Origin: Candidatus Eiseniibacteriota bacterium | GTDB taxonomy: Bacteria; Eisenbacteria; RBG-16-71-46; CAZAMP01 | Reading direction: 5' to 3' | NCBI GenBank assembly: GCA_965224245.1 | Contig: OZ245046.1 | Location: 5,632,001-5,696,000 of the forward strand | Length of the DNA stretch: 64,000 nt | In this document: in pieces, positions 3,094 to 38,890 of the stretch | How positions within the stretch are numbered: position 1 is the stretch's first letter | Layout of the letters: every line of letters begins with the position of its first letter | Made by a program: the position numbers and the translations under genes | Notes under the pieces: model-generated | The model's input: only the letters and a program-made list of their open reading frames with translations | Told to the model about the DNA's origin: nothing | The model's database searches: none

Positions 3094-3139
3094 GACGTGC
3101 TTCTCCGTACGAAGAGTCGGTAGGAATCCGGCGCATACG

Positions 3140-3175
3140 AAAAGCGCCGGGACCAGAGCTCACCCGGTCCCGGCG
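3140..3175 (-). terminator. Probable intrinsic terminator after the CRTAC1-like gene
   Basis: 10-bp inverted repeat cgccgggacc(3145-3154)/ggtcccggcg(3166-3175), followed on the minus strand by CTTTT. Confidence 0.55.
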
Positions 3176-3194
3176 GATCCTATCACCGCGAGCG

Positions 3195-5114
3195 TCAGCG
3201 CGCGATTACGACCTTGCCGGTGGCGACCTCGATCCCGCCGTCGCCCACGGCGCGGTAGTGATAGACGCCCGGAAGGACGGCGCTGCCGCTGGCCAGCCGT
3301 CCGTCCCAGTGGATCGATCCGGTGCCCGCGTCGACCGTCGTCGCGATGCGGCGCACCAGTCGACCGCGGGCGTCGTGGATCGTGATCTCGAGACGCGTGG
3401 CCACGTCGACCCGGTACGCGAACGACGTTCCCGTCCGTGTCGGGTTCGGATGCGGAGCGGCCACGGCCACCGGGGCACCCGAGGTGGGTGCGTCCACGGC
3501 GAGGAGCCCCCGCTGGAAGCTGAGGAGCTGATCCGCGGAGACGTCGACGTAGATGTCCTCGGAGCCGTCGACCCAGCGAACCCGCAGCTCGTCGACGGTC
3601 GTCGCCGCGCCCAGCCCGAAGTGGGCCTCGAGCGGGAAGCCTGCCACGTAGCTGCGGGCGAAGAGCACGTCGCGACGCAGCGTGCGGTCGCCGATCGTGG
3701 CGTACACCACGGCTCCGGCGGCGTCCGCGTCGGGTCCCAGCCGGACGTGCAGCCAGTGTCCCTGATCGGTGCTGACGTTCTCGTAGAGCCGGCAGGACTG
3801 GTTGATGTTGGTGACCAGGAGATCCTCGTCCCCATCGCGGTCGTAGTCGAACGCGATCACGGCGCGCGAGTCGTCGCCGTCCTCGAGACCGACCGGAGTC
3901 ACCCGCGTGAAGTGTCCCGTGCCGTCGTTCTCGAGATACACCGTGGGTGTCTGGTAGACCGGGGACCCCGGACCCACCGCGAACTCCACATACGTATCGA
4001 ATCCGGTCCCGGCGACGATGTCGAGATCGGTGTCGTTGTCGGCGTCGATGAACACGGTGCCCCAGCCCCAGTAGGTCTGCTCGACGCCACGACTCGCGGC
4101 CTCGTTCACGAAGGTGGCGGCGCCCGACTCGGTGAGCTGATTGATGTAGAGCACGTTGCCGTACCCGAGTCCCATGATGCCGTCGTCGTCGGAGATGTTC
4201 GTCGCGTAGAGGTCGAGGTCGTCGTCGTCATCGAAATCGGCGGCCGCCACGCCCATGTCATTGCCGATGTGGTCGACCCCCACGACGGCGCTCACGTCCG
4301 AGAAGAAGTTGCCGACGCGCCGGTAGAACCGGTCCTTCCGGTGATCGATGGCGACGAAGATGTCCTGATCGAGGTCGGCGTCGAAGTCGGTGAAGATCGG
4401 CGTGAAAGAGTCGATCGCGAGCACGCCGAGGCCGGAGAGCGCCGTCACGTCGCTGAACAGAAAGCTCCCGTTGTTCCGGAAGAGGCGGTTGGAGCCCGGG
4501 AACTGAGCCGGTCCCGCCGAGCCGTACATCGACCAGTTCGTGGTGTAGATGTCGAGGTCGCCGTCGCCGTCGTAGTCGGTGATGGCGGCGCCGCAGTGCA
4601 GCATGCCGTCGGGCGCGAAGCCGGAACCGGCGGTGACGCTGACGAACGTACCGTCGCCGTTGCCCTGCCAGATCTGGCTCGTGCTCTCGGGGCCTGCGCC
4701 GGGTGCGATCCCGTCGTTGACGAGAACCAGGTCGCGCAGACCGTCCCCGTCCATGTCGGCGAAGAACGCCAGGCGCGACATGCCCTGATCGGCCAGGGTC
4801 GGCGGCGTGACGTTGGTGAAGGTCTTCGATCCGAGATCCAGCTCGTTGCGGAAGAGGACGTTGGTGTCGCCCCACTGACCGCAGACGTAGACGTCCAGAT
4901 CCCCGTCGTCGTCGTAGTCCCCGACGGCCGCGCCGTTCCCCATGTTGAGGAACATCATCTCCTGGATGATGCTGCCGTCGATGGATTCGCCGAATGCACA
5001 GACGAATCCGAGCCCCGACGTGGCGGTCACGTCGACGAATGCGGTCTCGGCCCAAACGGTTGCCTGCGGCATCATGAGCAGTGACGCTACAGCAGCGAAC
5101 CAGGTCGACTTCAT
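3195..5114 (-). CDS. Secreted CRTAC1/ASPIC-UnbV FG-GAP repeat protein with C-terminal FlgD-Ig/T9SS-like domain
   Basis: Repeated DYDxDGDxD motifs, ASPIC region EAHFGLG...VRW, C-terminal PNPTR...IHDARGRLVR...WDGR...PGVY. Confidence 0.9.
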   Translation of the reverse strand: MKSTWFAAVASLLMMPQATVWAETAFVDVTATSGLGFVCAFGESIDGSIIQEMMFLNMGNGAAVGDYDDDGDLDVYVCGQWGDTNVLFRNELDLGSKTFTNVTPPTLADQGMSRLAFFADMDGDGLRDLVLVNDGIAPGAGPESTSQIWQGNGDGTFVSVTAGSGFAPDGMLHCGAAITDYDGDGDLDIYTTNWSMYGSAGPAQFPGSNRLFRNNGSFLFSDVTALSGLGVLAIDSFTPIFTDFDADLDQDIFVAIDHRKDRFYRRVGNFFSDVSAVVGVDHIGNDMGVAAADFDDDDDLDLYATNISDDDGIMGLGYGNVLYINQLTESGAATFVNEAASRGVEQTYWGWGTVFIDADNDTDLDIVAGTGFDTYVEFAVGPGSPVYQTPTVYLENDGTGHFTRVTPVGLEDGDDSRAVIAFDYDRDGDEDLLVTNINQSCRLYENVSTDQGHWLHVRLGPDADAAGAVVYATIGDRTLRRDVLFARSYVAGFPLEAHFGLGAATTVDELRVRWVDGSEDIYVDVSADQLLSFQRGLLAVDAPTSGAPVAVAAPHPNPTRTGTSFAYRVDVATRLEITIHDARGRLVRRIATTVDAGTGSIHWDGRLASGSAVLPGVYHYRAVGDGGIEVATGKVVIAR

Positions 5115-5300
5115 ACGGATGACCCCTCTTCCACATGAAACCCACGAGCGTCGCGCACGACTATGTTGTCCGGAGATTTTATCATCGAGTCCTGTGTTCT
5201 GCCCACAGAAGACGCCCGGCTCGGCCCAAGTCGCGGATCTGCGACGAGCGGTCGATCGAACCGACCGCGCGGTCGAATCCGGGGAGGGGCGGGCTTCCGT

Positions 5301-5412
5301 CGGTCGCCGGGGTGCCCGACGGCCCTACGGTCGCCCGGCGCCCGACGGCCCTACGGTCGCTGGGCGCCCGACGGCCCTACGGTCGCCCGGCGCCCGACGG
5401 CTCTACGGTCGC
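5301..5412. repeat. Tandem 26-bp minisatellite, about 4.3 copies
   Basis: Units cggtcgc-N5-gcccgacggc(c/t)cta begin at 5301, 5328, 5354 and 5380, with a partial unit at 5406. Confidence 0.9.
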
Positions 5413-6278
5413 CGGCGAAACGCGTCGGACGTGTAGAGGGCCAGCCCCGACCAGATCAGCGCGAATGCCGCGAGGTGCGACCCCGTGAACGGCTCGCCAT
5501 AGATGAAGACGGCAAGCACGAAGTGACAGGTCGGCGTCAGGTACTGGAGGAGACCGAGCGTCGTGTAGCGGAGCCGGCGCGCCCCGAGCGTGAAGGCCAC
5601 GAGCGGCGCGACCGTGAACGCGCCGGTGGAGGCGAGGATCGCGGCCTCGCCGGGGCGGGACAGCGTGAAGGCGCCGCCGGCCGCCCGCCCGGCCCAGACG
5701 AGGTACGCGAGCGCCGGACCGAACAGCACGGCCAGCTCGACCCCGAGTCCCGCGATGGCGTCGGTCCGCATCACCTTGCGCACGAGCCCGTAGAGTCCGA
5801 ACGATCCGGCGAGAGCGAAGGCGATCCACGGGACGCGCCCCACCCGCACGATCAAGAGGGTGACGCCGGCGGCCGCCAGGAGCACCGCGATCGCCTGTCG
5901 TCGCGAGAGACGTTCGCGCAGAAACACGCCCCCGAGAAGCACGTTGACCAGGGGGTTGATGAAGTACCCGAGGCTGGCGTCCAGGACGTGATCGTTGTTG
6001 ACCGCCCACACGAAGCCGAACCAGTTGATGGAGATCAGGATCGTGCTCGCGGTCAGCCGGATGCGCTCGCGCATGTCGCCCAGCGCCGCCCGCACCTCGT
6101 GCCACCGGCCGAGTACGGTGAGCGTGAGCACGACGAGGGGAAACGACCACACGATCCGATGGGCGAGCGTCTCGGTCGCGGGCACGTGCTGGATCGTCTT
6201 CCAGTAGACCGGCGCGAGCCCCCAGAACGCGAACGCGCCGGCCCCGTACGCGAGTCCGCGGATCGTGGAGTTGGACAT
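5403..6278 (-). CDS. rarD: EamA family transporter RarD
   Basis: ETLAHRIVWS, ASLGYFINPLVNVLLG, GLLQYLTPT and about 10 TM segments. Start placed at MSNSTIRG. Confidence 0.9.
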   Translation of the reverse strand: MSNSTIRGLAYGAGAFAFWGLAPVYWKTIQHVPATETLAHRIVWSFPLVVLTLTVLGRWHEVRAALGDMRERIRLTASTILISINWFGFVWAVNNDHVLDASLGYFINPLVNVLLGGVFLRERLSRRQAIAVLLAAAGVTLLIVRVGRVPWIAFALAGSFGLYGLVRKVMRTDAIAGLGVELAVLFGPALAYLVWAGRAAGGAFTLSRPGEAAILASTGAFTVAPLVAFTLGARRLRYTTLGLLQYLTPTCHFVLAVFIYGEPFTGSHLAAFALIWSGLALYTSDAFRRRP

Positions 6279-6346
6279 CGCGTCGGGGCTCCCTCGGTGG
6301 TTGGCGTCGAGCGCGCGGACTGTAGCGTGATACACTCCCGCGCGCC

Positions 6347-26047: not shown

Positions 26048-26283
26048 GCGTTCGCGTCGCCGGCCGGGCCGGCGGCCACCCGGATGCGACGGAACCGGGC
26101 CGGAGTCCGTGGGGTGTGCCGAGGGCGTGGCGTCGCCCGGGACCTGCTTTGACCGGATCCCCGTCGAGTTGGTATTGTCGACGCGAACGATGTCGCGCAT
26201 TCAGCATCCCCCATGCTTCGGCTGACCTGCCCCGCGACGTGTCCACCCAGAGCCGGCCGCGGGTCGTCAAACAGGAGACATTC

Positions 26284-27840
26284 GTGATCGATCCCTCGAC
26301 GTTCCGACGTTCCGCTCTCGCATGGACGCTCGTACTCGCCATGACCGCAGGCTGCGGAGACGACGACGATCCCATGACCCCCGACGACGGTCCCGGCGCG
26401 ACCGGCTCGGCCACGGTGCGCATCGTACACGAGGTGGACGGGACCGGCTTCGCGCTGAACACACCGTACACGAACGCCACCGGCAACACCTACTCGGTGG
26501 CGAACCTCGAGTACGTCCTCTCGCGGGTCACGTTCACGAGCACCGCTGCCCGGGCGTTCGAGAGCGACGCCGCGTTCTACGTCTCGGCGGACGACACTGA
26601 TACGCACACGCTCGTCTTCGACGAGGTTCCCGCCGGCGACTACACGGCGGTGTCGTTCACGTTCGGTCTCGACGAGACCATGAACCGTGATCCCGATCAG
26701 GGCGGGACGCTGCCCCGCACGCCCGAGTGGGAGGCCATGCGCTGGCCCGCCACCTGGGGCGGCGGCTACCACTACATGAAGCTGGAAGGCACGTTCGAGA
26801 CCGACGACGCGGCCACCGAGAGCTTCGCCATGCACACGGGACGCCGGAACGCCACGTCGGACCCCACGTTCGGAACCGACCCCGCGCCCATCCCGCACTT
26901 CTTCACGGTCACGGTGCCCGGCTCGGCGTTCACCGTCGAGGACGACACGGACACCGACGTGTCGATCACGATGAACCTGAATGGGTGGTTCGAGGACCCG
27001 TACGCCTACGACCTCGACATGTACTCGCTGATGATCATGATGAACACGGCGGCCCAGAACATCCTGGAGGGGAACGGACCCAGCGTGTTCGGCGACCCCA
27101 GGAACGAGAACGCGGGCGCGCGCATCGACGTGGCGTTCGACCACGACGTGGCGGGAGCACCGCTCCTGTTCGACGCGATGGACTACACGACCGCCGAGGG
27201 CAACGACTACTCGGTGAAGACGCTTCGATACATCGTCTCGCGCGTCGAGCTGGTGAACGCGACCGGTGGCGTTGTGGCGGGTCCCCTGGTCCACTATCGC
27301 GACGCGTTCGAGGACGGGACGCGCGCGCTGTCGATCGAGCACGTACCGCCAGCATCGTACACGCAGCTCCGGATCACGTACGGGCTGGACGGCGAGCTGA
27401 ACAAGGACCCCGATCAGGGCGGAGACCTGCCCCAGACGCCCGAGTGGGAGGCCATGCGCTGGCCGACGCTCTGGGGCGGCGGCTACCACTACATGCAGCT
27501 CGAAGGTGACTTCCGGACCGAGGGCGACGACGTCGAGTCCTTTGCGACCCACACCGGCCGCCGCCACGCACAGGATGGCTGGGGCGGGCCGCCGGATCCC
27601 GAGCCCATCGAGCACTACGTGGACCTGACGTTCTCCGGCCTCGGTCTGGACGCCGCGAGCACCGACCACTGGGAGATCCGCATGGTCATGGACGTGAACC
27701 AGTGGTACGAGGACCCGATCGAGTACGATCTCGACATGTATCCACGGATGATGATGATGACCACCGCGGCGCAGGACATCCTCGAGGCGAACGCCGCGAC
27801 GGTCTTCCGCGTGGAGTCGGTCGCGGAGCTCTCGGAGTGA
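26284..27840 (+). CDS. Lipoprotein with two tandem MbnP-family (copper-binding) domains
   Basis: RBS aggag plus GTG; lipobox MTAGC; two copies of AMRWPxxWGGGYHYM(K/Q)LEG...HTGRR, 717 nt apart. Confidence 0.8.
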   Translation: MIDPSTFRRSALAWTLVLAMTAGCGDDDDPMTPDDGPGATGSATVRIVHEVDGTGFALNTPYTNATGNTYSVANLEYVLSRVTFTSTAARAFESDAAFYVSADDTDTHTLVFDEVPAGDYTAVSFTFGLDETMNRDPDQGGTLPRTPEWEAMRWPATWGGGYHYMKLEGTFETDDAATESFAMHTGRRNATSDPTFGTDPAPIPHFFTVTVPGSAFTVEDDTDTDVSITMNLNGWFEDPYAYDLDMYSLMIMMNTAAQNILEGNGPSVFGDPRNENAGARIDVAFDHDVAGAPLLFDAMDYTTAEGNDYSVKTLRYIVSRVELVNATGGVVAGPLVHYRDAFEDGTRALSIEHVPPASYTQLRITYGLDGELNKDPDQGGDLPQTPEWEAMRWPTLWGGGYHYMQLEGDFRTEGDDVESFATHTGRRHAQDGWGGPPDPEPIEHYVDLTFSGLGLDAASTDHWEIRMVMDVNQWYEDPIEYDLDMYPRMMMMTTAAQDILEANAATVFRVESVAELSE

Positions 27841-27847
27841 ACGACGC

Positions 27848-28945
27848 ATGATGCCGCGGCGCACCACGAGTACCCGATCGATCGGCGGCCTTCTCGCCGC
27901 CGTCTGCCTCGCGCTCGGCGCGTGCGCCTCGGACAAGACCACCGATCCGGATCCCCCGGCGACTGCCTGCGAGACCGACACGACGCCGATCGAGTTCACC
28001 GCCCCCGGCTTTCCGCCGATGGTGGTGCCCGAGGACAATCCCACCACGCCGGCCGGCGTCGCGCTCGGGCGGCGCCTCTTCTACGATCCCGTGCTCAGCG
28101 ACGACGGCACGCTGTCGTGCGGGGGCTGCCACCTGCCCTCGCACGCATTCGCCGACAGCGCGTCGCTCTCCCAGGGCATCACCGGCGAGACCGGCTCGCG
28201 AAACGCGCCGGCGCTGATGAACGTCGGGTGGTTCCGCGAGCTCTTCTGGGATGGTCGAGCCGGATCGCTGGAGGAGCAGATCGATGGACCCGTCACGCAC
28301 CCCAAGGAGATGGCCGCCGACTGGGACGAGGTGGTCGCCCGGGTCGCGGCCAGCGACGGCTACCTCGATTGCTTCGAGGCGACGTTCGGGGACCGGCAGA
28401 TCACGGCGGATCGGATCAAGAAGGCGATCGCCCAGTTCGAGCGCTCGTTCGTGTCGGCGAACGCTCCGTACGATCGCTGGCAGATCGGCGCCGGAGAGCT
28501 GAGCCCGGCGGCGGTTCGGGGCTGGCAGATCTTCTTCTCGGAGGTCGGGGACTGCTTCCACTGCCACGGCGTCAACGGTCTCTTCACCGACAACCGCTAC
28601 CACAACGTGGGGGTCGATTCGGTGATCGTGGACCCCGGCCTCGGCGGCATCACGGAGCGTCCCGAGCACGTGGGTCTCTTCAAGACCCCGTCGCTCCGGA
28701 ACGTCGAGCGAACGGCGCCGTACATGCACGACGGGCGGTTCCAGACCCTTCGCGAGGTCGTCGAGCACTACAACCACGGCGGCTTCCGGACGGCGACGGT
28801 GGATCCCCTGATCCGGGTGGGCGTCGGGCTCCAGCTCAGCGAGCAGCAGGTGTCCGATCTGGTCGAGTTTCTCCGGGCGCTCACCGACGACGACTTCTTC
28901 ACGAACCCCGACTACCAGGACCCGTCGGCCAGGGCGAGCGACTGA
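27848..28945 (+). CDS. Di-heme cytochrome c peroxidase family protein (MauG/MbnH-like)
   Basis: LGRRLFYDPVLS, CGGCH, RNAPAL, LFWDGRA, CFHCH, FKTPSLRNV..TAPYMHDG; lipobox LGAC. Confidence 0.92.
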   Translation: MMPRRTTSTRSIGGLLAAVCLALGACASDKTTDPDPPATACETDTTPIEFTAPGFPPMVVPEDNPTTPAGVALGRRLFYDPVLSDDGTLSCGGCHLPSHAFADSASLSQGITGETGSRNAPALMNVGWFRELFWDGRAGSLEEQIDGPVTHPKEMAADWDEVVARVAASDGYLDCFEATFGDRQITADRIKKAIAQFERSFVSANAPYDRWQIGAGELSPAAVRGWQIFFSEVGDCFHCHGVNGLFTDNRYHNVGVDSVIVDPGLGGITERPEHVGLFKTPSLRNVERTAPYMHDGRFQTLREVVEHYNHGGFRTATVDPLIRVGVGLQLSEQQVSDLVEFLRALTDDDFFTNPDYQDPSARASD

Positions 28946-30431: not shown

Positions 30432-31163
30432 TCACTCGGCCTGGATCGTGGCCGCGATCACGTGGTCGAGGTTCGGGTACTCCGCATCGAGGAACTCGTT
30501 ACCCCGTGCGCTGATGCGGTCCTGGGGGAGGCCGTCGCCGTAGCCGTCGTAGAGCTCGTCGACGACGGTGTCCATCCCCTCGACGACGCGCCCGAACGGC
30601 GCGAACCCCTGGCGATCCAGGAACGAGTTGTCCTTGAAGTTGATGAACACCTGGGTCGTGCGGCTGTGCGGCCCCGACGTGGCGAACGTGATGGTCCCTC
30701 GCTGGTTCGACTCCTTCGGGATGTCGTCGAGGATCTTGGCGGTCTGCCAGGCCTGCGTGATCGTCGGATCGCCGTTCATGCCGAACTGCACCACGAAGCC
30801 CTCGACCACGCGGAAGAACCGGCAGTCGTCGTAGAACCCGTGGCGAACGAGGTTGTAGAAGCGATCGGCGCCGCGCGGCGCCAGCGCGCGATCCACCTCG
30901 ACCACGAAGTCGCCCTTGGTCGTCTCGACCTTCACGCGATACGTGCTGGGGGCCTTCTCCTTGAAGGCCCCGGCCTTCGGATCCATCAGCAAGGACGTCT
31001 CTCCCGCGTGGCCGGCGTCGCTGGCCGGTGCATCTTCGGACATGGCGGCTTCGGCTCGGGCCTCGGCGCCGTCATCCGTCTTGGCTTTGTCGCCGGAGCT
31101 CGCGCAGCCCACGGCGACCGCGCTGGCGAGCGCGAGCACGGTCGTCAGCGACCAAATGCGCAT
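30432..31163 (-). CDS. Cyclophilin-type peptidyl-prolyl cis-trans isomerase (lipoprotein)
   Basis: FFRVVEGFVVQFG, RGTITFA, TTQVFIN, FAPFGRV; lipobox AVGC. Confidence 0.92.
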   Translation of the reverse strand: MRIWSLTTVLALASAVAVGCASSGDKAKTDDGAEARAEAAMSEDAPASDAGHAGETSLLMDPKAGAFKEKAPSTYRVKVETTKGDFVVEVDRALAPRGADRFYNLVRHGFYDDCRFFRVVEGFVVQFGMNGDPTITQAWQTAKILDDIPKESNQRGTITFATSGPHSRTTQVFINFKDNSFLDRQGFAPFGRVVEGMDTVVDELYDGYGDGLPQDRISARGNEFLDAEYPNLDHVIAATIQAE

Positions 31164-31621: not shown

Positions 31622-32308
31622 ATGAAGAAGACCATTCTCCTCGGATGCGCTCTCCTGCCGCTGATGGCGGGCAGCGCGTTCGCACAGTCGACCGGCACGG
31701 TCAGCGTCAGCGGCGCGGTCTCCAAGTCGGCTGCGATTCGCTGGTGGAGCTACACGCCGATCGTGGGCGAGGTGGGCACCAACAACCCGGCCACGCAGAA
31801 CGGGCCCATGGACTTCAGCCTCGACGTGTCCGAGGCGGCCGCGGGTCTGAATCTCCAGAGCTACACCGGCGGTACCGTCCAGATGATCATCCGCTCCAAC
31901 GCGGCCTACACGCTGAACGCACAGGTCACCACGTCGAGTGGCTTCGGCACGATCGCGAACGGCGACATGGCGCTGAGCGACGTCGGCTTCGGCATCGGGT
32001 CGGTGTCGAACTCCGGCCCGAAGGTCTTCGGCGATCCGGCGTCGGGATCCACGGTCGCGGCGGCGTTCGCGTCGGATCCGAGTGCGGCGGCGAAGGACGT
32101 GGACGAGGAGCCGATCTTCACCGCGTCGCTCGACGACGTCACGTCCAGCGTCCAGGTGCTCGACGGTCCGCGGATCTCGAACCGGGGCGGCATCGGCTCG
32201 CCGAACAACGGCCTCCTGGTGGACACGACGTACGCCATCGGCCCGCAGTTCTACACGCCGGTCGCGAGCTTCGACGCCACGGTGACGTTCACGCTGGCCA
32301 CCCCCTAG
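31622..32308 (+). CDS. Putative fimbrial/pilin-like major subunit (secreted)
   Basis: Sec signal ending SAFA; alternating N-terminal strand TGTVSVSGAV; RSNAAYTL; C-terminal strand FDATVTFTLA; upstream of a chaperone-like gene. Confidence 0.6.
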   Translation: MKKTILLGCALLPLMAGSAFAQSTGTVSVSGAVSKSAAIRWWSYTPIVGEVGTNNPATQNGPMDFSLDVSEAAAGLNLQSYTGGTVQMIIRSNAAYTLNAQVTTSSGFGTIANGDMALSDVGFGIGSVSNSGPKVFGDPASGSTVAAAFASDPSAAAKDVDEEPIFTASLDDVTSSVQVLDGPRISNRGGIGSPNNGLLVDTTYAIGPQFYTPVASFDATVTFTLATP

Positions 32309-32432
32309 CGCGATGTCTCGACAGGTCCCTCCCAGGGGCGCGCGCGGCGCGCCCCCGCGATCGAGGCATCCGATCGCCGACGGTTCCCATCCGAGGAGCC
32401 CCGGACCGCGCACGTCGCGGGGCCGGGGCCTC

Positions 32433-33095
32433 GTGCGTTTCGGCGCCGTCGTGCGCCGGGCGCTCTGGTGCACGGCGATGCTCGGGCTCTGGGGCACGAG
32501 CGTCGCGGTCGCGGAGCTGGGCCCGGTCCTCGTGCTGCCCGAGCCTCCCGGTCCTCCCCCCAAGCCCCCGGCCGGCTTCGACGGCGAGATCGTCGTGCTG
32601 CCCGATGACCTCGCCGAGACCGGGACCGCTCGGATCCCGCTCGGCACCGTCGAGCTGGGAGAGCTGACGCCGGGTGTCGGCGTGCCGTGGGTGCGCGAGG
32701 AGACCACGATCGCGATCTACTCGCCGTTCGGGTACTTCCCCCGCTACCGGCTCACGGCCCGGTCGCTGACGCCGGCCGGAGGGCCCGTCGGCGCGTTCAC
32801 GACGGCCGACATCGGCATGGGGATCACCGATCCGGTGGGGCGGGCGCCGCGGATCAACCCCGACTACGACTACGACCCGTCGACCGTGGCCAAGAACGCC
32901 GACGACGAGCCGCTGTTCGTCGGCACGGTCCAGTCACTGGGTCCGTTCATTCCCGGCACCGAGATTCTCCGGATGCGCGGCTTCTACTGGGGCTCGTGGA
33001 ACTACTTCACGCTCATCTTCGCCGTCGGGCCGCAGTACTTCACCCCCGGACCCTCGCAGGTGGTCCAGCTGGAACTGGAGCTGATCCTCCTATGA
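32433..33095 (+). CDS. Putative minor pilin-like subunit, paralog of the upstream gene
   Basis: Shares DIGMGI/DVGFGI, DPSTVAKNADDEPLF/DPSAAAKDVDEEPIF and AVGPQYFTP/AIGPQFYTP with 31622-32308. Start uncertain (32313 or 32433). Confidence 0.6.
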   Translation: MRFGAVVRRALWCTAMLGLWGTSVAVAELGPVLVLPEPPGPPPKPPAGFDGEIVVLPDDLAETGTARIPLGTVELGELTPGVGVPWVREETTIAIYSPFGYFPRYRLTARSLTPAGGPVGAFTTADIGMGITDPVGRAPRINPDYDYDPSTVAKNADDEPLFVGTVQSLGPFIPGTEILRMRGFYWGSWNYFTLIFAVGPQYFTPGPSQVVQLELELILL

Positions 33096-33964
33096 CGATC
33101 CCGACCCGTTTCGCGAGCGCCGTGGCGCTCGCCCTGGTGACGACCTCGGTCGCCGTCCCCGCCGCCCGGGCCGGCGACGTGTCGATCATCCCGAGCCTCG
33201 TCGAGGTGCGGGTTCCGCCGGGCGAGGACTTCACGACGCTCGTGGAGATCGTGTACGCCAAGAGCAACGACCAAGACGACATGCCGCTTCGCATCGTCCT
33301 GTCCACCGAGGACTGGGACATGAACGCCGAGGGACGGCTCTCATATGCAGTGCCCGACAGCCTCCCGGAATCGGCCGCGTCGTGGGTCGTCTTCTCGCCG
33401 AGCGAGGCCGAGATCGTCCCCGGACAGATCATGCATGCGCGCATGTCGGTCATCGTGCCCGAGGACGCGCGGGGCGGCGAGTATCGCGCCGCGCTGATCG
33501 CCCAGCCGAGGCCGGCGTATCGGCCGCTCGAAGAGAATCAGAAGCGTCTCCAGTTTCGCTACCGCCTCGCGTCCACGATCTACGTGAGCGTGCCGCCGAT
33601 CGAGCACGAGCTGGATCTGGTCGGTCTGGACGTGGTCGCCGATCGCGGGCGGTGGGCGGTGGTTCCGTCCTTACGGAACGACGGCGGAGAGCACGCCCGT
33701 ATCGTCGACTCGTTCGAGGTGCTGCCGATCGAGAACCCGCTCCTGGGGAGCGCATACGTGAAGCAGACCGAGGAGGCGGGGGTCGTGCTGCCGGGACGAC
33801 TGCGCCGACTCCGACACTGGCTGCCGGAGTACCTCGAGCCCGGTGCCTACCGCATCGTGTACGAGGCCGACGCGGGAGATCCCTACCCCCTGATGGTGGG
33901 GGAGAGCACGTTCGAGATCCCGGGTCCCGACGACGTCCCGACGGTCGTCGCCACCCGGGACTGA
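33092..33964 (+). CDS. PapD-like periplasmic pilus assembly chaperone (two Ig-like domains)
   Basis: ATGA overlap with the upstream gene; signal peptide; VPGQ...VIVPEDARGGEYRAALIAQP; LRNDGGEHAR...VLPGRLR...LEPGAY. Confidence 0.7.
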   Translation: MTIPTRFASAVALALVTTSVAVPAARAGDVSIIPSLVEVRVPPGEDFTTLVEIVYAKSNDQDDMPLRIVLSTEDWDMNAEGRLSYAVPDSLPESAASWVVFSPSEAEIVPGQIMHARMSVIVPEDARGGEYRAALIAQPRPAYRPLEENQKRLQFRYRLASTIYVSVPPIEHELDLVGLDVVADRGRWAVVPSLRNDGGEHARIVDSFEVLPIENPLLGSAYVKQTEEAGVVLPGRLRRLRHWLPEYLEPGAYRIVYEADAGDPYPLMVGESTFEIPGPDDVPTVVATRD

Positions 33965-34010
33965 CGGTGGTGTGCCGCCGCGATCCGATCCGACCGGTGC
34001 GGCGGGCACG

Positions 34011-35594
34011 CTAGTCCGGATCCGCCGAGCGCGCGGAGAAGGCGAGCGCGGCCGCCGTCCAGACGAACGGCAGCAGCGGCATCACGTAGCGCCTGAGAAC
34101 GAGATGACTCCAGGCAACCGCGAATCCACAGGCGATCGCGAACGCGAAGATCAGGATCGCGATCCGGCGCGCCCGCCGCGCGTCCGGGCCCGCCGGACGC
34201 GTGAACGCGGCGCACAGGATGACCGCGGCGACCGCCCAGCTCACCATGGCCCACGGGGCGTAGAGCTTCCGGAGAGCGGCCATCGGGTCGCCGTGGCGCG
34301 GCGTCCACTCGGTGGTGTGCTGTCCGGGCCAGAAGGCGGTGATGGAGCCGTCCGGATGCTCGCGGTACGTGTACCGGCCGTGCGCCACGGGAGAGGTCGG
34401 TACGAAGACCCGTGCGAAGCTCGGCAGCACGAACGTCCGCAGATACGTTCCCAGGTTCTGCGCGATCCACTCGTGCGTGAACGACCGGAAGAGCTCGTTC
34501 ACGAGAATGAACGCGTTTCGGTACTGCAGCGCGAACGCGGGGAGAGCCGGGTTCGTCCGGTTCCGGTGCTCGACGAAGTACCGCTGAGCCGGCGTCGTCG
34601 GTACCTTCGCCTCGCGGATGAAGCCCGTCAGGAACCGACGATAAGGCTCCACGTCCTTCGGTTCGGGCTCGTAGCGGGGCCAGAAGGCTCGCAGCAACCG
34701 TTTCGCGGGTGATCTGCGATTCCAGCGATGCCAGTTCGAGTCGTGGTCGGGTCGGATCGACGATGGGTACGCGGTGAGGAACTCGGCGACCAGACGGGCC
34801 TCTGGGTCGAGGAAGTCTTCGGGGGCCAGCTCGTCGAGGTGAGGCGCAATGTTGCCGTAGAGGGCCCAGCCGTCGAACGTGGTCGGGCGAAAGCGTCCGA
34901 GGCTCCAGTCCACGTGCGCGCTGATCGCCAGGATGCTGGCCGAGGACACGAGCACGACCATGCCGGCACGACGGGCACGGCTCGCATGCGACGGCGCACG
35001 CCACACCACGGTGGCGGCCAGCAACGCCGGATTGGCGAGGCCCACGAACCGGAGGAACATCGTCGACACCGACAGCGCGAGCGCGCCGGCGAACCACCGT
35101 CTCGTCGGGGAGTCGACGTACGCGAGAATCGTGGCCAGGAAGCCGATCGTCTGCGCCGTATAGACGGTATCGGCGATCAGGAAGTGATCGAGGTACCACG
35201 CGTGGGGATCGAACGCGATCAGCGCTCCGGCCGCAACCGCGACCTCCCGGCGAACGCGCTGGTGGCGGTGAAGCACCCACGTCAGTCCGAGCGACGCGAT
35301 CAGCCGAAGCAGAGCGGCCAGCACGACCGACACCGTCGGCGTCGGCGAGAACACGCGGGTGGCGGCCAGGTATAGCGAGTAGCCGATCGGCTTGTACGGG
35401 TTCGCCTTCAACGACTCGGCCGACAACACGTACTCCTCGCTGTCGCCGACGAGATAGGGATGAGGGTACAGGTAGACCTGGAGGAGCTTGAGCAGCACGA
35501 ACGCCACCGTCATCCAGACGAGCGGGGTGACGAGCGAGCCGGCGGGGCTGCCTGACGATCGCTCGCCTCGACGGGAGTGTCCGGCGCTCGTCAT
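34011..35594 (-). CDS. Polytopic membrane protein, GT-C fold glycosyltransferase-like
   Basis: GDSEEY...KPIGYSLYL in the first loop, multiple TM helices, a large soluble loop, C-terminal RRYVMPLLP. Confidence 0.6.
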   Translation of the reverse strand: MTSAGHSRRGERSSGSPAGSLVTPLVWMTVAFVLLKLLQVYLYPHPYLVGDSEEYVLSAESLKANPYKPIGYSLYLAATRVFSPTPTVSVVLAALLRLIASLGLTWVLHRHQRVRREVAVAAGALIAFDPHAWYLDHFLIADTVYTAQTIGFLATILAYVDSPTRRWFAGALALSVSTMFLRFVGLANPALLAATVVWRAPSHASRARRAGMVVLVSSASILAISAHVDWSLGRFRPTTFDGWALYGNIAPHLDELAPEDFLDPEARLVAEFLTAYPSSIRPDHDSNWHRWNRRSPAKRLLRAFWPRYEPEPKDVEPYRRFLTGFIREAKVPTTPAQRYFVEHRNRTNPALPAFALQYRNAFILVNELFRSFTHEWIAQNLGTYLRTFVLPSFARVFVPTSPVAHGRYTYREHPDGSITAFWPGQHTTEWTPRHGDPMAALRKLYAPWAMVSWAVAAVILCAAFTRPAGPDARRARRIAILIFAFAIACGFAVAWSHLVLRRYVMPLLPFVWTAAALAFSARSADPD

Positions 35595-35852
35595 CGCGCA
35601 CCACGCGGTGCGCCGTCCGCCGCGGCGCGCGAGCGTCTGTCCCGGTCGTCGACGACGTCGTCGATCCAGGCGAGCGCGGGCATCGAGCGGGCCATGGGAC
35701 GTCCCCTGGTGAGTCACGGTGAATGAATGATGGGGGGATCGTGCGAGCTTACCCTGCGAGGCCGTCGAAGGGAACCCGTGGCCCGGTTCACGGCGTGGAT
35801 ACGATGCTCGGAATACGAGCATCGTATCCGGGGACCATCCTGGTGGTGCCGA

Positions 35853-36083
35853 CTAGCCCAGCACCTCGACCAGCGCCTTCCGATGATGCTTGCTGCCCAC
35901 GGCGGCGACGATCGTCCGGAGCGCTTCGAGGTTCCGGCCGTGCTTGCCGATGATCAGCCCCATGTCTTCCTTGGCCACCGACAGCTCGTAGATGGTCAGC
36001 GATTGACTCGAGATCTCACGCACGGAGACGCTGTCGGAGTTGTCGACGAGCTCGCGGGCCATGTTCTCGATCAGAGACTTCAT
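35853..36083 (-). CDS. khpA: KH-domain RNA-binding protein (KhpA/YlqC family)
   Basis: MKSLIENMARELVD...DMGLIIGKHGRNLEALRTIV (GxxG loop), 76 aa. Confidence 0.85.
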   Translation of the reverse strand: MKSLIENMARELVDNSDSVSVREISSQSLTIYELSVAKEDMGLIIGKHGRNLEALRTIVAAVGSKHHRKALVEVLG

Positions 36084-36433
36084 GAGTCGCGTCCTTTTGC
36101 CGGGACGACGGGACGTCATCCTCGATTGCAGTGTCGGGTACGTGTCGGTTCGCGGCTCGTCGTGGCACGTGTGCGACGACGAGCGTGTCACGCATGCGGA
36201 AGGCGACCGGGAGCCGGAGGATTCCGCGTCGACCAGCAGTCGCGAACCGGTCTCCGGATCGGAATCGCGCGCCCGCGCGTCACACGGATCTTGATCGACC
36301 GACCCCCGCACGATGTTTCGCGAAAAGGGAACGTGCTCGGGACGGCCGGCCGCTCCGGAACCGGGGTCAGCCGTCGAGCCGTCCGCCTTCTGGCGATCGA
36401 CTGCTCGATCGGGCGCGAGGCCTCGGGGGCGCG

Positions 36434-38890
36434 CTAGAACCGTTTCCGGACGACCGCGCGGGGCCGTGGCACCACCCCGACCTGGATCCCCGTGACGTCG
36501 CGAGTCACCGGCACGTCCACCTGCATCGTGGCCGGCGCGATCAGCTCGCCGGGGAGCGACGCCGGCGCGATCTGGAGGGCGTGCCGTCCCGGGGGCACGT
36601 CTCCGAGCCGGAACGAGCCGTCCGGGCTCGAGAGCGTGTTGGAGCCCCCCGCGATGAACACGAGCGCATCGGACACGACCGGCTCGTCGGTGTCGTGCCG
36701 GTCGTTTCCGTTCACGTCGACGAACACGATGCCGGTCACGCGGCGGTTCACGCACGCGCGGAAGTCGATCCGTGCCCGGGTCAGGGGCCCGATCGTCACG
36801 TCGCCCGACAGTGCGCCGAGCACCGAGAGGTCCGCCCGCAGCGTGGTCGCCTCCACGGTCACGTGGTGGCGGCCCGGGGCGAGCGACTCGAACGCGTATC
36901 GTCCCTCGCGGTCGGTCTCACGCCGGTCCATGCCGCGATCCAGCGTGACCACGATGCCGCGCAGCGGCCGCTCGCCCTCGTCGTAGCGCCCGTTCAGGTT
37001 CGTGTCGACGTAGATGCGACCTTCGATCGCGACCGGTCGGTTGCGGCCGGCGGCATCGTCCATGCCCGCGTGCCGGAGCCGATCCTCGTCCAGCACGAAG
37101 CGTCCGCGCCAGTCCGCGCGCGTGAGATGTCCGACCTGCTGCTGATCCACGGCGATGCTGGCCCCGTGATCGCCCGAGGCGTAGCCGATGCGGATGCGCG
37201 CGGTGAAGCCTCGCTGCTCGTCCACGAATGTGCGCGTCCATCGGCCGCCGACGGTCATCGAGAGGCCCCCGAGCATGCGGACCGGTGGCGACCAGTCTGC
37301 CGACGCTCCGGCGAAGCGATGATCGCTCCACGACGTCGCGAGCTGAGCTCGACCGGCGCGGGTGTCGACGAGGAGACCGGCGGAGGCGAAGAACGCATCG
37401 GAGCCGCTCAGCCGTCGTCGCATCGATCCGTACCACTTGCCGATCGGCAGCCGTCCCCGGAGGTCCAGCGAGAGGTCGGTACGTGTCGAGGTTCGGCCGA
37501 GATCGGCGATCGACAGCGTGGCGACCGCGGACTGGAGCGCCGGATGTGACGGGGTCCACGCGGTCGCCGCATCGTAGAGCCGGTCCGTCGACCGGAGGAC
37601 CGGGTCGTAGTGCAGCGAGTGCGACGCGCCCAGCGACACGCGCTCGGACAGGCGGCGGTTCGCACCCAGCGTGTAGAACGACGAGCCGTCCTCGGCGAAC
37701 ACCGACGCGCGCTGGAACGCGGTGCCGAAGTGCCCCGCGCGCACGCGGAGCGCCGTGTCGTCCTCCGGTGACCACTGCGCGTGGAGCTCGATCGCCTCGC
37801 GATCGGCGAGGTCGTGTCCGGGGCTGACGAACGCGCCGCCCTCCACGCGGGTCAGCCATCGCTCTCGCCGCGCCTCGTGACGCACGCCGACGAGCATGCC
37901 CTCGCGCCGGGACGCCCCGCGTCCGATCCAGGACGCCCCGACATCGAGGGCGTCGGCCGCCGTCGGCTCGTCTCGCAGGCGCCAGCCCATCGACACCGTA
38001 CCCACGTGCTCGTCGAAGCGAGGTCCCACGAAGTTGCTCCGGGCGCCGGTGAATCCGGACGAGAGCTGCACGTAGCTGGCCGACAGCCGCCGGGCGCCGC
38101 CGTTCAGCTCCAGATCGGCGCCGATGCCACGGCCGTGCGCGCGTAGCCACGACATGCGCGTGTCTCCGCGGAGGTCGCCCAGCATCACCCGACTCCCGGC
38201 TCCGGAATCGAGCTGGGTCAGGAAGGTGTTCAGATGAGCATGCTGTGCATCGGTGTACCGCCCGTCCAGCCGCGTCGACAGGAGCCCCGTCCGGACGCGG
38301 GTCCGGTTCTCGAGCGTGAGCGCGCCGTTGACCACGTCGCCGCGCTCGACCGCGTTGCCGTGGTAGCGGACCTCCTGCACGCCGATGGCCGGAAGCTCCG
38401 CGCGGAGCTGCTCGGGATCCAGCGGATTGGACGTGACGATGAGGGCGTCGGTCAGCGCATCGACCCGGATCGTTACCCCGAAGAGGATCGATGCCAGCTC
38501 GATCGGGACCCGGAGATCGCCCTCGTGCGTGCCGACCGGCAGCCCGGGCGCCAGACGGCTGCCGATGGCGAAGTCCCGGCTGACCTCGCCGGTCAGCCCG
38601 TCGTAGTACGCGGTCACCCCCTGCGACGGGATCGACACCGAAACCGATCGCGAGTAGCTCTCGAACACGACGGTGGCGCCCAGCGTCTGGGCGATCGGAC
38701 GCGTGGGCACCAGCCAGACGTCACCCCGCCGCTCGGGCGCATGTCCCGGGGTCACGATCGTCTCGCCGTCGATCACGAGGCCGGGAACGGTCTCGGCCCG
38801 CACGATCGGTGCGCTCCAGGCGAGCGCCATCAGCGCGAGAATCGCGACCACGCCGCGCGTGTTCCGGCCCGGGCTCGTGTCGATCCGCAT
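36434..38890 (-). CDS. Usher-like outer-membrane protein with N-terminal copper-amine-oxidase-N-like domain and two C-terminal SdrD-B-like Ig domains
   Basis: Signal peptide; LVPTRPIAQTLGATV / VPIELASILFG stalk-like motifs; long amphipathic beta-strand region; GRIYVDTNLNGRYDEGE and GIVFVDVNGNDRHDTDE; terminal Phe. Confidence 0.6.
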   Translation of the reverse strand: MRIDTSPGRNTRGVVAILALMALAWSAPIVRAETVPGLVIDGETIVTPGHAPERRGDVWLVPTRPIAQTLGATVVFESYSRSVSVSIPSQGVTAYYDGLTGEVSRDFAIGSRLAPGLPVGTHEGDLRVPIELASILFGVTIRVDALTDALIVTSNPLDPEQLRAELPAIGVQEVRYHGNAVERGDVVNGALTLENRTRVRTGLLSTRLDGRYTDAQHAHLNTFLTQLDSGAGSRVMLGDLRGDTRMSWLRAHGRGIGADLELNGGARRLSASYVQLSSGFTGARSNFVGPRFDEHVGTVSMGWRLRDEPTAADALDVGASWIGRGASRREGMLVGVRHEARRERWLTRVEGGAFVSPGHDLADREAIELHAQWSPEDDTALRVRAGHFGTAFQRASVFAEDGSSFYTLGANRRLSERVSLGASHSLHYDPVLRSTDRLYDAATAWTPSHPALQSAVATLSIADLGRTSTRTDLSLDLRGRLPIGKWYGSMRRRLSGSDAFFASAGLLVDTRAGRAQLATSWSDHRFAGASADWSPPVRMLGGLSMTVGGRWTRTFVDEQRGFTARIRIGYASGDHGASIAVDQQQVGHLTRADWRGRFVLDEDRLRHAGMDDAAGRNRPVAIEGRIYVDTNLNGRYDEGERPLRGIVVTLDRGMDRRETDREGRYAFESLAPGRHHVTVEATTLRADLSVLGALSGDVTIGPLTRARIDFRACVNRRVTGIVFVDVNGNDRHDTDEPVVSDALVFIAGGSNTLSSPDGSFRLGDVPPGRHALQIAPASLPGELIAPATMQVDVPVTRDVTGIQVGVVPRPRAVVRKRF

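Follow-up and report, generated by a model that had tools for sequence, protein, structure and literature searches.

A predicted donor-strand-exchange fibre locus combining a WxLIP-type chaperone with an usher-like outer-membrane protein in Candidatus Eiseniibacteriota

Introduction

The locus analysed here raises the question of whether two small secreted proteins, the protein encoded immediately behind them and a large secreted protein encoded on the opposite strand form a machine for assembling a surface fibre and, if so, from which protein families that machine is built. The locus lies in a stretch of 64,000 nucleotides of a Candidatus Eiseniibacteriota genome (assembly GCA_965224245.1, contig OZ245046.1), hereafter the window, and a preliminary description made from the letters alone had read it as a divergent pilus of the chaperone-usher kind. 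Our in silico analysis supports that reading, with checks on the pilin acceptor site, the outer-membrane barrel and gene co-occurrence yielding no refutation. On the strength of structure prediction and co-occurrence, we assign a probability of about 0.7 to the cluster encoding a donor-strand-exchange surface fibre, built by a two-part machine similar to the chaperone-usher pathway and made of other protein families. Such a machine would bring together a soluble WxLIP-related chaperone and a pore in the outer membrane with the shape of a Gram-negative usher, a combination that is new and so far unreported in print.

A 2026 preprint (10.64898/2026.10.17.759780), in the part drawn on here, shows the WxLIP family to act as the chaperone of Gram-positive WxL pili, with the WxLIP protein ElrE priming WxL pilins by means of a donor strand that runs in parallel (residues 141-152 of ElrE), and reports a screen at Pfam gathering thresholds that found the WxL pilus system in Bacillota only.

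Gene organization and co-occurrence

All four open reading frames (ORFs) are present at the positions first proposed for them, in DNA with a GC content of roughly 70%. On the forward strand, pil1, encoding the candidate major fibre subunit (31622..32308, 228 aa), is followed by its paralogue pil2, encoding a candidate minor subunit (32433..33095; 220 aa counted from the GTG at 32433, in a reading frame open from 32313), and by the gene for a candidate soluble periplasmic chaperone of WxLIP type (33092..33964, 290 aa). The claimed ATGA coupling of the latter two is visible in the sequence, where the pil2 stop overlaps the start of the 290-aa gene at 33092-33095. A predicted usher-like outer-membrane protein of 818 aa, secreted and ending in the terminal Phe that had been pointed out (...VVRKRF), is encoded on the reverse strand (36434..38890), convergent to the other three genes and separated from the chaperone gene by two unrelated genes. 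Pil1, pil2 and the 290-aa protein have no Pfam or NCBIfam family match.

DNA of about 70% GC yields many spurious long ORFs, and the four genes could be mis-called or chance neighbours forming no functional unit. We hold this to be very improbable, given that all four proteins have conserved homologues, that their order is kept in many loci and that the AF2 and complex models described below are confident. The pilin-(pilin)-chaperone order holds in all 21 related loci long enough to judge, with pil2 orthologues directly after pil1 in 10 of 26 related loci (L001-L006, L012, L025, L033 and L037). Among the 12 fetched stretches long enough to judge, 9 encode a homologue of the 818-aa protein downstream and on the other strand; it is absent from the fetched DNA in the other three (L001, L027 and L033), and in L001 it was found some 8 kb further on. 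Based on the conserved order and on the 9 of 12 stretches with a barrel gene, the gene cluster is an observation far beyond chance. The association expected by the preliminary description also extends to whole genomes: of 206 genomes from the phylum, three carry the pilin family, and these are also the three that carry the full-length barrel family, and each of the four further pilin-bearing genomes searched carries exactly one barrel homologue. In paralogous systems, a chaperone homologue is paired with a barrel relative of 909-1178 aa in 5 of 6 fetched loci. The named relatives are metagenome-assembled genomes labelled Gemmatimonadota, Candidatus Eisenbacteria, Acidobacteriota/Blastocatellia or simply 'bacterium'.

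The small secreted proteins

Pil1 and pil2 are indeed paralogues (BLASTP, 31% identity over 120 residues, E 4e-9), and the blocks that they had been said to share are seen in their alignment and kept across 27 aligned relatives as D[VI]G[FM]GI, DPSxxAKxxDxEPxF and A[IV]GPQ[FY][YF]TP. Pil1 comprises a signal peptide ending in AFA, a mature N-terminal extension, an Ig-like body and a C-terminal strand (ATVTFTLATP); the alternating N-terminal stretch QSTGTVSVSGAVSK and the C-terminal FDATVTFTLATP, both anticipated, are conserved among 27 aligned relatives. In pil2, the signal peptide is followed by an N-terminal strand, a variable Pro-rich linker and an Ig-like body, and an alignment of 9 sequences shows the strand to be conserved (consensus AQxEIxLxLPxP; ELGPVLVLPEPP in the window). 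The sole Cys of each protein sits inside the signal peptide (positions 9 and 13), so the mature pilins lack the usual disulfide Cys, as had been noted. Inspection of both sequences revealed no LPxTG motif, the Pfam WxL family matches neither the pilins nor any other protein in the genome, and a pilin profile finds no sequence match among solved chains at E ≤ 10.

The pil1 profile recovers 73 proteins, including pil1 itself, at E ≤ 1e-3 among 1132 candidates. Because the pil1 family is more conserved than that of pil2 and a pil1-like gene stands first in every locus found with this profile, pil1 is likely to be the major subunit. Its own N-terminal strand and Pro-rich linker make pil2 a candidate minor subunit, in the role of initiator, tip adaptor or terminator.

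In the AF2 monomer model of pil1 (pLDDT 75.4, pTM 0.73), the mature N-terminus (residues 22-36) is unstructured and lies outside the fold. The structural match that ranks first in both aligners is TLP-1b (Foldseek E 1.4e-3; VIA Z 7.2, rmsd 4.4, 162 aligned residues), one of the TLP-1a/TLP-1b fibrils recovered from pond water by CryoSeek (PMC11494351; PDB 9ikj, 9ikk). Further matches include TasA, Csu, CupE, archaeal bundling pili and FimA, in a list made up mostly of strand-swapped filament subunits, the Sulfolobus 0406 filament and cannulae among them. These matches are weak, with the best Z below the tool's caution line of 8, TM-scores of about 0.33 and, for TLP-1, 7% identity and no sequence support, and we counted this against the fibre reading; the model suggests only a weak proximity of pil1 to the orphan TLP-1 fibrils and other strand-swapped pilins. 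According to the part of PMC11494351 used here, the TLP-1 protomer is similar in size to mature pil1 (236-237 versus 207 residues) and donates an N-terminal strand, as pil1 is predicted to do, and the closest relative predicted for TLP-1, from Flavobacteriales, is made as a precursor with a signal peptide.

A WxLIP-type chaperone candidate

The preliminary description had attributed PapD-like signatures to the 290-aa protein. The quoted motifs (PG..VPEDA.GGEY and N.G..H...LPG) are present and correspond to consensus positions throughout the family; they are not PapD signatures. Pfam PapD_N is matched by 1 of 89 relatives (E 0.0039), which is not the protein of the window, and the family's relation to FimC is faint (hhalign probability 7), leading us to reject assignment to the PapD family. 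Instead, the profile of the 89 relatives matches the solved WxLIP protein EfmWxLIP1 (9i25_C, 9i1y_A) across profile positions 38-269 of 270, with E 5e-9, and 21 of the 89 match Pfam WxLIP_PGBD; the window's protein itself has only a sub-threshold NPCBM_assoc match. The family comprises 908 cluster representatives at E ≤ 1e-3. An N-terminus resembling a signal peptide is found in 86 of the 89 relatives and a C-terminal hydrophobic anchor segment in none, from which we infer that the family is soluble. Sequence comparison thus points to a candidate soluble periplasmic chaperone of the WxLIP (DUF916/DUF3324) superfamily.

Complex models of pil1 with the 290-aa protein scored 0.86, 0.89 and 0.85 (median 0.86), against 0.00 for the best of three controls, and such high scores may reflect solved chaperone-subunit or WxLIP complexes memorized by the predictor; 116 of 157 solved complexes attain this mark, as do 2 of 215 mismatched pairs. 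The runs share at least 86% of contacts, with a partner pLDDT of at least 79. In the model, a predicted donor strand of the chaperone (R152-LQFRYRL-A160) pairs in parallel with the C-terminal pilin strand (219-227), the lowest-error contacts being 153:219, 154:220, 155:221, 156:222, 157:223, 159:225 and 160:226. This arrangement would constitute donor-strand complementation. Because a chaperone strand pairs with the last pilin strand and the N-terminus lies outside the monomer fold, pil1 is predicted to be a fold with an acceptor site, not a closed Ig fold.

An interface that looks this stable may also belong to a static surface complex, in which pil1 and pil2 persist as monomeric Ig-like proteins, at the surface or in the periplasm, bound to the WxLIP protein and exported or anchored by the barrel. 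In the part cited here, PMC10599100 (2023) put forward a stabilizing role of this kind; it is the platform model of WxL clusters, which predates the demonstration of the pilus. We regard a static complex as quite unlikely: the portion of the preprint used here (10.64898/2026.10.17.759780) recasts the platform model of the Gram-positive relatives as a pilus, the nearest folds to pil1 are polymerizing subunits, and the alternating N-terminal extension of pil1 is conserved and left free, outside the chaperone interface, which on its side begins at residue 34.

The predicted usher-like outer-membrane protein

The AF2 model of the 818-aa protein (pLDDT 73.8, pTM 0.55), built on only 9 sequences, shows the transmembrane barrel that had been predicted. 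A signal peptide precedes an N-terminal alpha/beta domain (~38-153), some 26 consecutive antiparallel strands (169-596) and two C-terminal beta-sandwiches of CarboxypepD_reg/SdrD_B type (~620-810), with Pfam matches to CarboxypepD_reg (3.5e-12), SdrD_B (7.6e-11) and, below the cut-off, Cu_amine_oxidN1 (0.0019). Ushers, either FimD or PapC, take the first twelve places among the Foldseek PDB matches (E 1.6e-20 to 7.6e-12); pore-only ushers (E ~5e-8) are merely one to two orders ahead of TonB receptors. VIA aligns residues 168-806, barrel and C-terminal domains included, to FimD 137-833 with Z 15.2, in a tie with MtrB (14.7), VDAC (14.5) and OccK (14.2), and the usher likeness of the model is therefore not specific in this second aligner. 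The proposed identification as an usher is supported by the predicted shape and needs correction on two points: by sequence the protein has no match to the Pfam Usher family and its family is unrelated to FimD in hhalign (probability 0.09), and the barrel model has no plug-sized insert (longest inter-strand loop, 15 residues).

These absences, the VIA tie with unrelated barrels and the position of the gene, which in the window follows two unrelated genes and has the reverse orientation and which is not adjacent in 3 of 12 stretches, would suit a chaperone-primed fibre exported without an usher mechanism. The 818-aa protein would then serve as an anchor or a general pore, or would be an envelope protein with no part in the system that merely travels with the locus. 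This we consider unlikely, since the barrel follows the distribution of the pilin across the genomes above, its gene is directly convergent in L004, L006, L007 and L035, its relatives in the paralogous systems L052 and L053 are encoded co-directionally right after the chaperone, and its domains follow one another as in an usher.

Assembly model and comparison with known systems

In the donor-strand-exchange reading that we favour, pil1 and pil2 would be exported by Sec, as both have signal peptides, and would each fold in the periplasm as an Ig-like domain short of one edge strand. The soluble WxLIP-type chaperone would fill the missing-strand site with its amphipathic R-L-Q-F-R-Y-R-L-A stretch (152-160), parallel to the pilin C-terminal strand, and the resulting complexes would dock with the 818-aa protein in the outer membrane. 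At this site, the next subunit would use its free N-terminal extension (QSTGTVSVSGAVSK in pil1) to displace the chaperone strand by donor-strand exchange, with the wide barrel providing the exit for the growing polymer.

Similarities to the Elr/WxL pilus of Enterococcus faecalis include a chaperone that is a full-length, profile-level relative of EfmWxLIP1 (PDB 9i1y, 9i25), and a predicted donor strand (152-160), parallel to the pilin C-terminal strand in the model, whose location corresponds to that given for ElrE (141-152) in the part of the preprint used here. The subunits of both systems are Ig-like, of about 200 residues and with an alternating N-terminal strand; G10 and V12 of mature pil1 agree with the reported consensus [G/A]10 and [V/I]12, whereas positions 8 and 14 differ. 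Unlike in Elr, the chaperone here is predicted to be soluble (96.7% are anchored in Bacillota, according to the portion of 10.64898/2026.10.17.759780 drawn on), an outer-membrane barrel partner is present, and the pilins lack WxL and LPxTG features.

Classical and archaic chaperone-usher pili (Fim, Pap, Csu, CupE) share with this locus a common logic: the subunits are secreted and extended at the N-terminus, the periplasmic chaperone consists of two Ig-like domains, and a protein of about 800 aa in the outer membrane places a large barrel between an N-terminal domain and a pair of C-terminal sandwiches. Their subunits and ushers are among the fold matches reported above. They differ in their families, with no PapD_N, PapD_C or Usher match to the proteins here; in the 24 strands of the usher barrel, against about 26 predicted here without a plug insert; in the end domains of the 818-aa protein, which resemble Cu_amine_oxidN1 and CarboxypepD_reg/SdrD_B; in the Cys-free mature pilins; and in the convergent usher-like gene outside the operon.

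No adhesin gene is evident, and the fibre may therefore be structural or matrix-like. Strand-donating Ig or jelly-roll subunits with a matrix role and no tip adhesin likewise make up the TasA/TapA matrix fibres of Bacillus and the bundling pili of archaea; according to the part of 10.64898/2026.10.17.759780 used here, these systems have neither an usher nor a chaperone completing the fold at every step. No camelysin/TasA family match was found here in Pfam, and the TasA fibre (8aur) matches the pil1 model with a VIA Z of 6.3 and a Foldseek E of 2.9e-3.

Gene calls and organization of the locus

We interpret the locus as encoding a donor-strand-exchange fibre made by a periplasmic chaperone of the WxL-interacting protein type (WxLIP; DUF916/DUF3324, Pfam WxLIP_PGBD and WxLIP_HBD) together with an usher-like pore, a reading to which we assign a probability of roughly two in three. 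The G+C content of the window (~70%) gives rise to many spurious open-reading frames (ORF); judged by conserved homologues, the four ORFs from which the preliminary description had assembled a fimbrial system are real genes. They comprise, on the forward strand, the candidate pilins pil1 (31622-32308; 228 aa) and pil2 (32433-33095; 220 aa) and the gene for a 290-aa secreted protein, here termed the chaperone (33092-33964), and, on the reverse strand, the usher-like gene (36434-38890), which encodes an 818-aa protein. The ATGA coupling described for the chaperone gene is present in the sequence, its own ATG overlapping the TGA of pil2, and the proposed paralogy of pil1 and pil2 is borne out by 31% identity over 120 residues (E 4e-9). 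The mature forms of both contain no Cys, again as described. That the cluster is an artefact, in a window where spurious ORFs abound, is scarcely credible for genes with such homologues.

Two further genes lie between the chaperone and usher-like genes, co-directional with the latter on the reverse strand. One encodes a polytopic membrane protein of 603 aa (34011-35822) that belongs to no Pfam or NCBIfam family, also when trimmed to 517 aa, and whose first loop (…PYLVGDSEEY…) presumably resembles those of GT-C glycosyltransferases; the other encodes a 77-aa KhpA-type KH protein (35853-36086). Both were considered as parts of the system and rejected, since tblastn matched them in the window's own genome and in none of the related loci. 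Because neither accompanies the cluster in any of these loci, we treat the two proteins as passengers, and their genes look like local insertions. Scans for promoters, terminators and Rfam families across the locus yielded no match.

Linkage and distribution

Twelve related loci were found in one-per-species genomes and 14 more on metagenome contigs, for a total of 26, with the genome loci labelled as Blastocatellia (4), 'bacterium' (4), Gemmatimonadetes/Gemmatimonadota (2), Candidatus Eisenbacteria (1) and Acidobacteriota (1). They follow two layouts, the pil1-pil2-chaperone order of the window and an Acidobacteriota-type order of pilin-chaperone-pilin-pilin-chaperone. All 21 loci that reach far enough have a chaperone homologue after the pilin, the other five ending too early. 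An 818-aa homologue is located downstream on the opposite strand in nine of the 12 stretches with at least 3 kb past the last chaperone, in agreement with the convergent layout previously noted for the window, and was not found in the fetched stretches of three loci (L001, L027 and L033). The genomes of four loci (L001, L002, L008 and L009) each contain exactly one 818-aa homologue (E<=4e-152), which in that of L001 lies ~8.2 kb downstream in convergent orientation.

Of 206 genomes from the window's phylum, three have the pil1 family, and these three also hold the full-length matches to the 818-aa family; the genes thus occur together elsewhere, the check that the preliminary description had asked for. 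In six more genomes the match is confined to the C-terminal 200 residues of larger proteins. The chaperone family is present in 61 of the 206 genomes, the unpublished G083 among them. We inspected six loci around other chaperones, four picked for a nearby C-terminal match and two as the top chaperone matches lacking one; five of the six carry, within ~1.2 kb, an ORF of 909-1178 aa matching the barrel-family profile. Since other chaperone loci carry relatives of the barrel protein, the system in the window is one member of a larger, unannotated class. In L052, which holds a paralogous system (3124-6316) from a different genome of the phylum, a chaperone homologue is flanked by four small secreted ORFs (177-195 aa) that match no Pfam family; a 989-aa barrel relative comes after them, and all of these genes share one strand. 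Of the small ORFs, two end in …YSITLVYTMETTP and …YSINVTYTLVTHLP, recalling the …ATVTFTLATP of pil1. When the profile of the pil1 family was aligned with a small ORF of L052, hhalign revealed no relation (probability 0.44), and pilins of sister systems can therefore not be linked by sequence.

A candidate soluble chaperone of the WxLIP superfamily

The chaperone has no Pfam or NCBIfam match at or above cut-off, and phmmer against PDB sequences returned no match at E<=10. Scanning 1.84 billion cluster representatives in full, we obtained 908 relatives at E<=1e-3, of which 147 reach E<=1e-10. We aligned the protein with 88 of the 150 relatives listed, keeping those of roughly single-domain-pair length and excluding fragments as well as tandem-doubled forms (480-590 aa). 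The resulting 89-row profile matches EfmWxLIP1, a WxLIP of Enterococcus faecium with solved structure (9i25_C, 9i1y_A), at E 5e-9 over positions 38-269 of 270 (chain residues 24-263), followed by short, weak matches, including the fimbrial chaperone EcpB at E 0.012. In Pfam, the 89 rows most often match NPCBM_assoc (26), WxLIP_PGBD (21) and fn3_5 (20), with WxLIP_HBD and PapD_N (E 0.0039) in one row each; all WxLIP_PGBD and WxLIP_HBD matches were obtained at E<=0.01. The window's own protein matches neither WxLIP family at E<=1, nor does it match PapD_N or PapD_C, and hhalign of its family against E. coli FimC gives a probability of 7. On these profile, Pfam and hhalign results the chaperone belongs, at superfamily level, with the WxLIP proteins and not with the PapD family, and the PapD-like identity originally suggested for it has to be abandoned.

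A hydrophobic C-terminal segment, defined as a 19-mer of mean KD >= 1.6 in the last 45 residues, occurs in none of the 89 rows, the window's included, and 86 of them have a signal-like N-terminus; this branch is therefore soluble and secreted, that is, periplasmic in a diderm. Ten clusters of relatives looked up by name are unnamed or 'hypothetical protein', save for one member called 'P pilus assembly chaperone PapD'. The nearest Atlas cluster, auto-named 'P pilus assembly protein, chaperone PapD', is Deinococcota-rich, and a further one nearby has WxLIP_HBD in 14% of its members, both being leads only. About 20 of the 150 listed relatives (P0129, P0136, P0140, P0151 and others) are tandem-doubled chaperones of 480-590 aa with two or three matched stretches; Acidobacteriota-type loci have instead two separate chaperone genes.

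Pilin candidates outside known families

No Pfam or NCBIfam family matches pil1 or pil2 at or above cut-off, and for 27 relatives a Pfam search at E<=10 turned up nothing beyond noise (DIM and LPAM_1, for example). Against PDB sequences, neither pil1 (phmmer) nor the pilin profile had any match at E<=10. The pil1 family comprises 73 matches, itself included (E<=1e-3 among 1132 candidates), at 50-82% identity with a single exception at 31%, and all are unnamed or 'hypothetical' except for one UniRef name starting 'PEP-CTERM sor...'. The WxL domain (PF13731) was not detected in pil1 or pil2 at E<=1, in the 27 relatives at E<=10 or in the whole genome at E<=1, and neither sequence contains an LPxTG motif. 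The C-terminal motif of the pilins may resemble the distal motif of WxL proteins, and the pilins may be remotely related to these. Among 14 control genomes, the Pfam WxL model matches in Deinococcus radiodurans and Lactococcus lactis, and exceeds the cut-off in one of the two.

The AF2 model of pil1, based on 27 sequences (pLDDT 75.4, pTM 0.73), predicts a beta-sandwich from residue 37 on, preceded by an unstructured mature N-terminus, which forms a free, conserved extension; pil2 carries a conserved N-terminal strand of its own, together with a Pro-rich linker. The best Foldseek matches of the model in the PDB are TLP-1b (E 1.4e-3), the TasA fibre (2.9e-3), TLP-1a (3.0e-3) and Thermus TTHA1873, none of them strong, and for TLP-1b the probability is 0.98 with a TM-score of only 0.33. 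With VIA, a second, Foldseek-independent aligner, TLP-1b again ranks first (Z 7.2, rmsd 4.4, 162 of 237 aligned). The Epf adhesin domain, the Sulfolobus 0406 filament, the Csu pilus, TasA, CfaE, CupE, bundling pili, cannulae and FimA follow at Z 5-6.6, and all of these scores, that of TLP-1b included, are below the value of 8 under which the tool advises caution. What counts in this evidence is the enrichment of the model's matches for strand-swapped filament subunits and no single score. Membership of pil1 in the TasA/camelysin group was considered and set aside, with no family match and a fold score no better than that of chaperone-usher (CU) pilins.

Predicted chaperone-pilin complex

The modelled pair consisted of residues 28-290 of the chaperone and 22-228 of pil1, with a separate alignment for each. 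It scored 0.86, 0.89 and 0.85, against 0.00 for the best of three controls, with contact agreement between runs of at least 86% and partner pLDDT of at least 79; the mark for this score is reached by 116 of 157 solved complexes and by two of 215 mismatched pairs, and the score expresses likeness, not binding, and may reflect memory of solved complexes. The contacts of lowest error run from 153:219 to 160:226, joining chaperone residues 153-160 to pilin residues 219-226, and because both indices rise the chaperone strand R-L-Q-F-R-Y-R-L-A is predicted to lie parallel to the last strand of the pilin. In the pilin-chaperone prediction, one of those called for in the preliminary description, a chaperone strand completes the pilin fold, a topology that corresponds to donor-strand complementation as in CU systems and in the ElrE-ElrD pair of Enterococcus. 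A static complex, in which pil1 and pil2 stay with the chaperone and form no polymer, would include this same contact; the pilin N-terminal residues 22-33 lie outside the chaperone interface in the model, and we regard such a complex as improbable next to the donor-strand-exchange fibre.

A predicted usher-like outer-membrane protein

Pfam detects only two CarboxypepD_reg/SdrD_B repeats at the C-terminus of the 818-aa protein and, at its N-terminus, a domain resembling Cu_amine_oxidN1 that stays below cut-off. Word-indexed searches with its central region retrieved only the protein itself, and those with a seq­uence profile of seven members retrieved itself and four unrelated proteins sharing the C-terminal repeat; as these searches were unproductive, the alignment for folding was built from eight locus-derived homologues. 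An Atlas search with the barrel region gave leads only, all scoring <0.9: 'outer membrane beta-barrel' clusters, others of PEP-CTERM-associated OMPs, and an Acidobacteriota cluster of 847 aa that shares all three Pfam domains with the 818-aa protein.

In the AF2 model, from only 9 sequences (pLDDT 73.8, pTM 0.55), the signal peptide and an alpha/beta domain (38-153) precede 26 consecutive antiparallel strands (169-596) and two beta-sandwiches (620-810); the model thereby predicts the transmembrane barrel that had been sought in this protein. Many turns of the barrel have two residues and the longest inter-strand loop has 15, so that the model lacks a plug-sized insert. In the PDB, FimD and PapC ushers take all of Foldseek ranks 1-12 (E 1.6e-20 to 7.6e-12), with pore-only ushers at ~5e-8 and the best other barrel, FemA, at 6.6e-7. 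VIA aligns 430 residues with FimD (168-806 vs 137-833; Z 15.2, rmsd 16.2), a score tied with those of the unrelated barrels MtrB (14.7), VDAC (14.5) and OccK3 (14.2); for the PapC pore it gives Z 13.8 and rmsd 4.9 over 352 residues. In sequence, a Pfam scan at E<=1 detected none of the usher families (PF00577 Usher, PapC_N, PapC_C), and hhalign of the nine-sequence family against E. coli FimD gives a probability of 0.09. The usher of unusual architecture put forward earlier is supported by the predicted barrel and two C-terminal sandwiches; neither a match to the Usher family nor, in the model, a plug-sized insert was found. We read the model as an usher-like architecture with homology unproven. 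That the barrel protein is something other than an usher, as the VIA ties and missing family matches would allow, is unlikely, though slightly less so than a static chaperone-pilin complex, beside the Foldseek ranking and the occurrence of its family in the same genomes as pil1.

Proposed mechanism and relation to known systems

The family relations, the co-occurrence and the predicted complex topology and barrel are computed; we infer that the subunits would polymerise by donor-strand exchange, of which the free, conserved N-terminal extension is an indirect sign, and that the fibre would leave through the barrel, with pil1 as the probable major subunit and pil2 as a minor subunit with its own N-terminal strand and Pro-rich linker. 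The mechanism is of a known kind; the parts list and their combination are new.

Gram-negative CU systems with PapD and Usher families are one known setting of donor-strand pili. Compared with these, the locus has a similar predicted barrel with two C-terminal sandwiches, whereas the Usher, PapD_N and PapD_C families and the plug are missing. According to a preprint of October 2026, Enterococcus WxL clusters build a donor-strand-exchange pilus without an usher; the WxLIP protein ElrE is its chaperone, with a parallel donor strand at 141-152; a C-terminal membrane helix is present on 96.7% of WxL pilus chaperones; and the system occurs only in Bacillota in a screen at Pfam gathering thresholds (10.64898/2026.10.17.759780). 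In contrast to that membrane-tethered Gram-positive chaperone, the one described here is soluble; pil1 and pil2 lack the Pfam WxL domain and LPxTG, and a predicted usher-shaped outer-membrane protein is present. A third point of reference is provided by the TLP-1a/b fibrils (PDB 9ikj, 9ikk), reported as imaged from pond water, with donor-strand exchange from protomer n+4 (PMC11494351); TLP-1 is the top, if weak, fold match of pil1, with no sequence match at E<=10.

The locus joins the CU and WxL settings: a soluble WxLIP-type chaperone is combined, in a diderm lineage, with an outer-membrane protein of predicted usher shape and with subunits outside the family libraries. In the literature searched we found no description of a WxLIP-type chaperone with an outer-membrane partner, of a diderm WxLIP-usher system or of the TLP-1 genes; the preprint text mentions neither TLP, diderms nor Deinococc (10.64898/2026.10.17.759780), and its supplements could hold wider screens. 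If confirmed, the reading would make the WxLIP chaperone family far more widespread than reported, open a testable route to the relation between the CU and WxL pathways, and supply orphan cryo-EM fibres such as TLP-1 with candidate genes for their assembly. We tentatively propose, at somewhat less than even odds, that WxLIP-type chaperones, far from being confined to Bacillota, are the periplasmic arm of a widespread second CU-type pathway of diderms, with a plug-less usher-like barrel and many unrelated pilin families, of which the Gram-positive WxL pilus would be a usher-less, membrane-tethered derivative and TLP-1-like orphan fibres would be products. For the question of origin, a WxL-like pilin from a phylum of diderm type would be informative.

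Flanking genes

Upstream of pil1 and divergent from it lies a gene for a cyclophilin-type prolyl isomerase with a lipoprotein-like signal (30432-31163, reverse strand; …AVAVGCASSG). The 458-bp gap between the two contains no promoter-like or Rfam match, and the cyclophilin gene is absent from the related loci. On the forward strand, a gene for a 574-aa protein with two MbnP domains (26116-27840; E 3.7e-58, two stretches) is followed after eight bases by that of a MauG/MbnH-type di-haem cytochrome c peroxidase (27848-28945; E 3.1e-56), the two forming a tandem-MbnP/MbnH pair.
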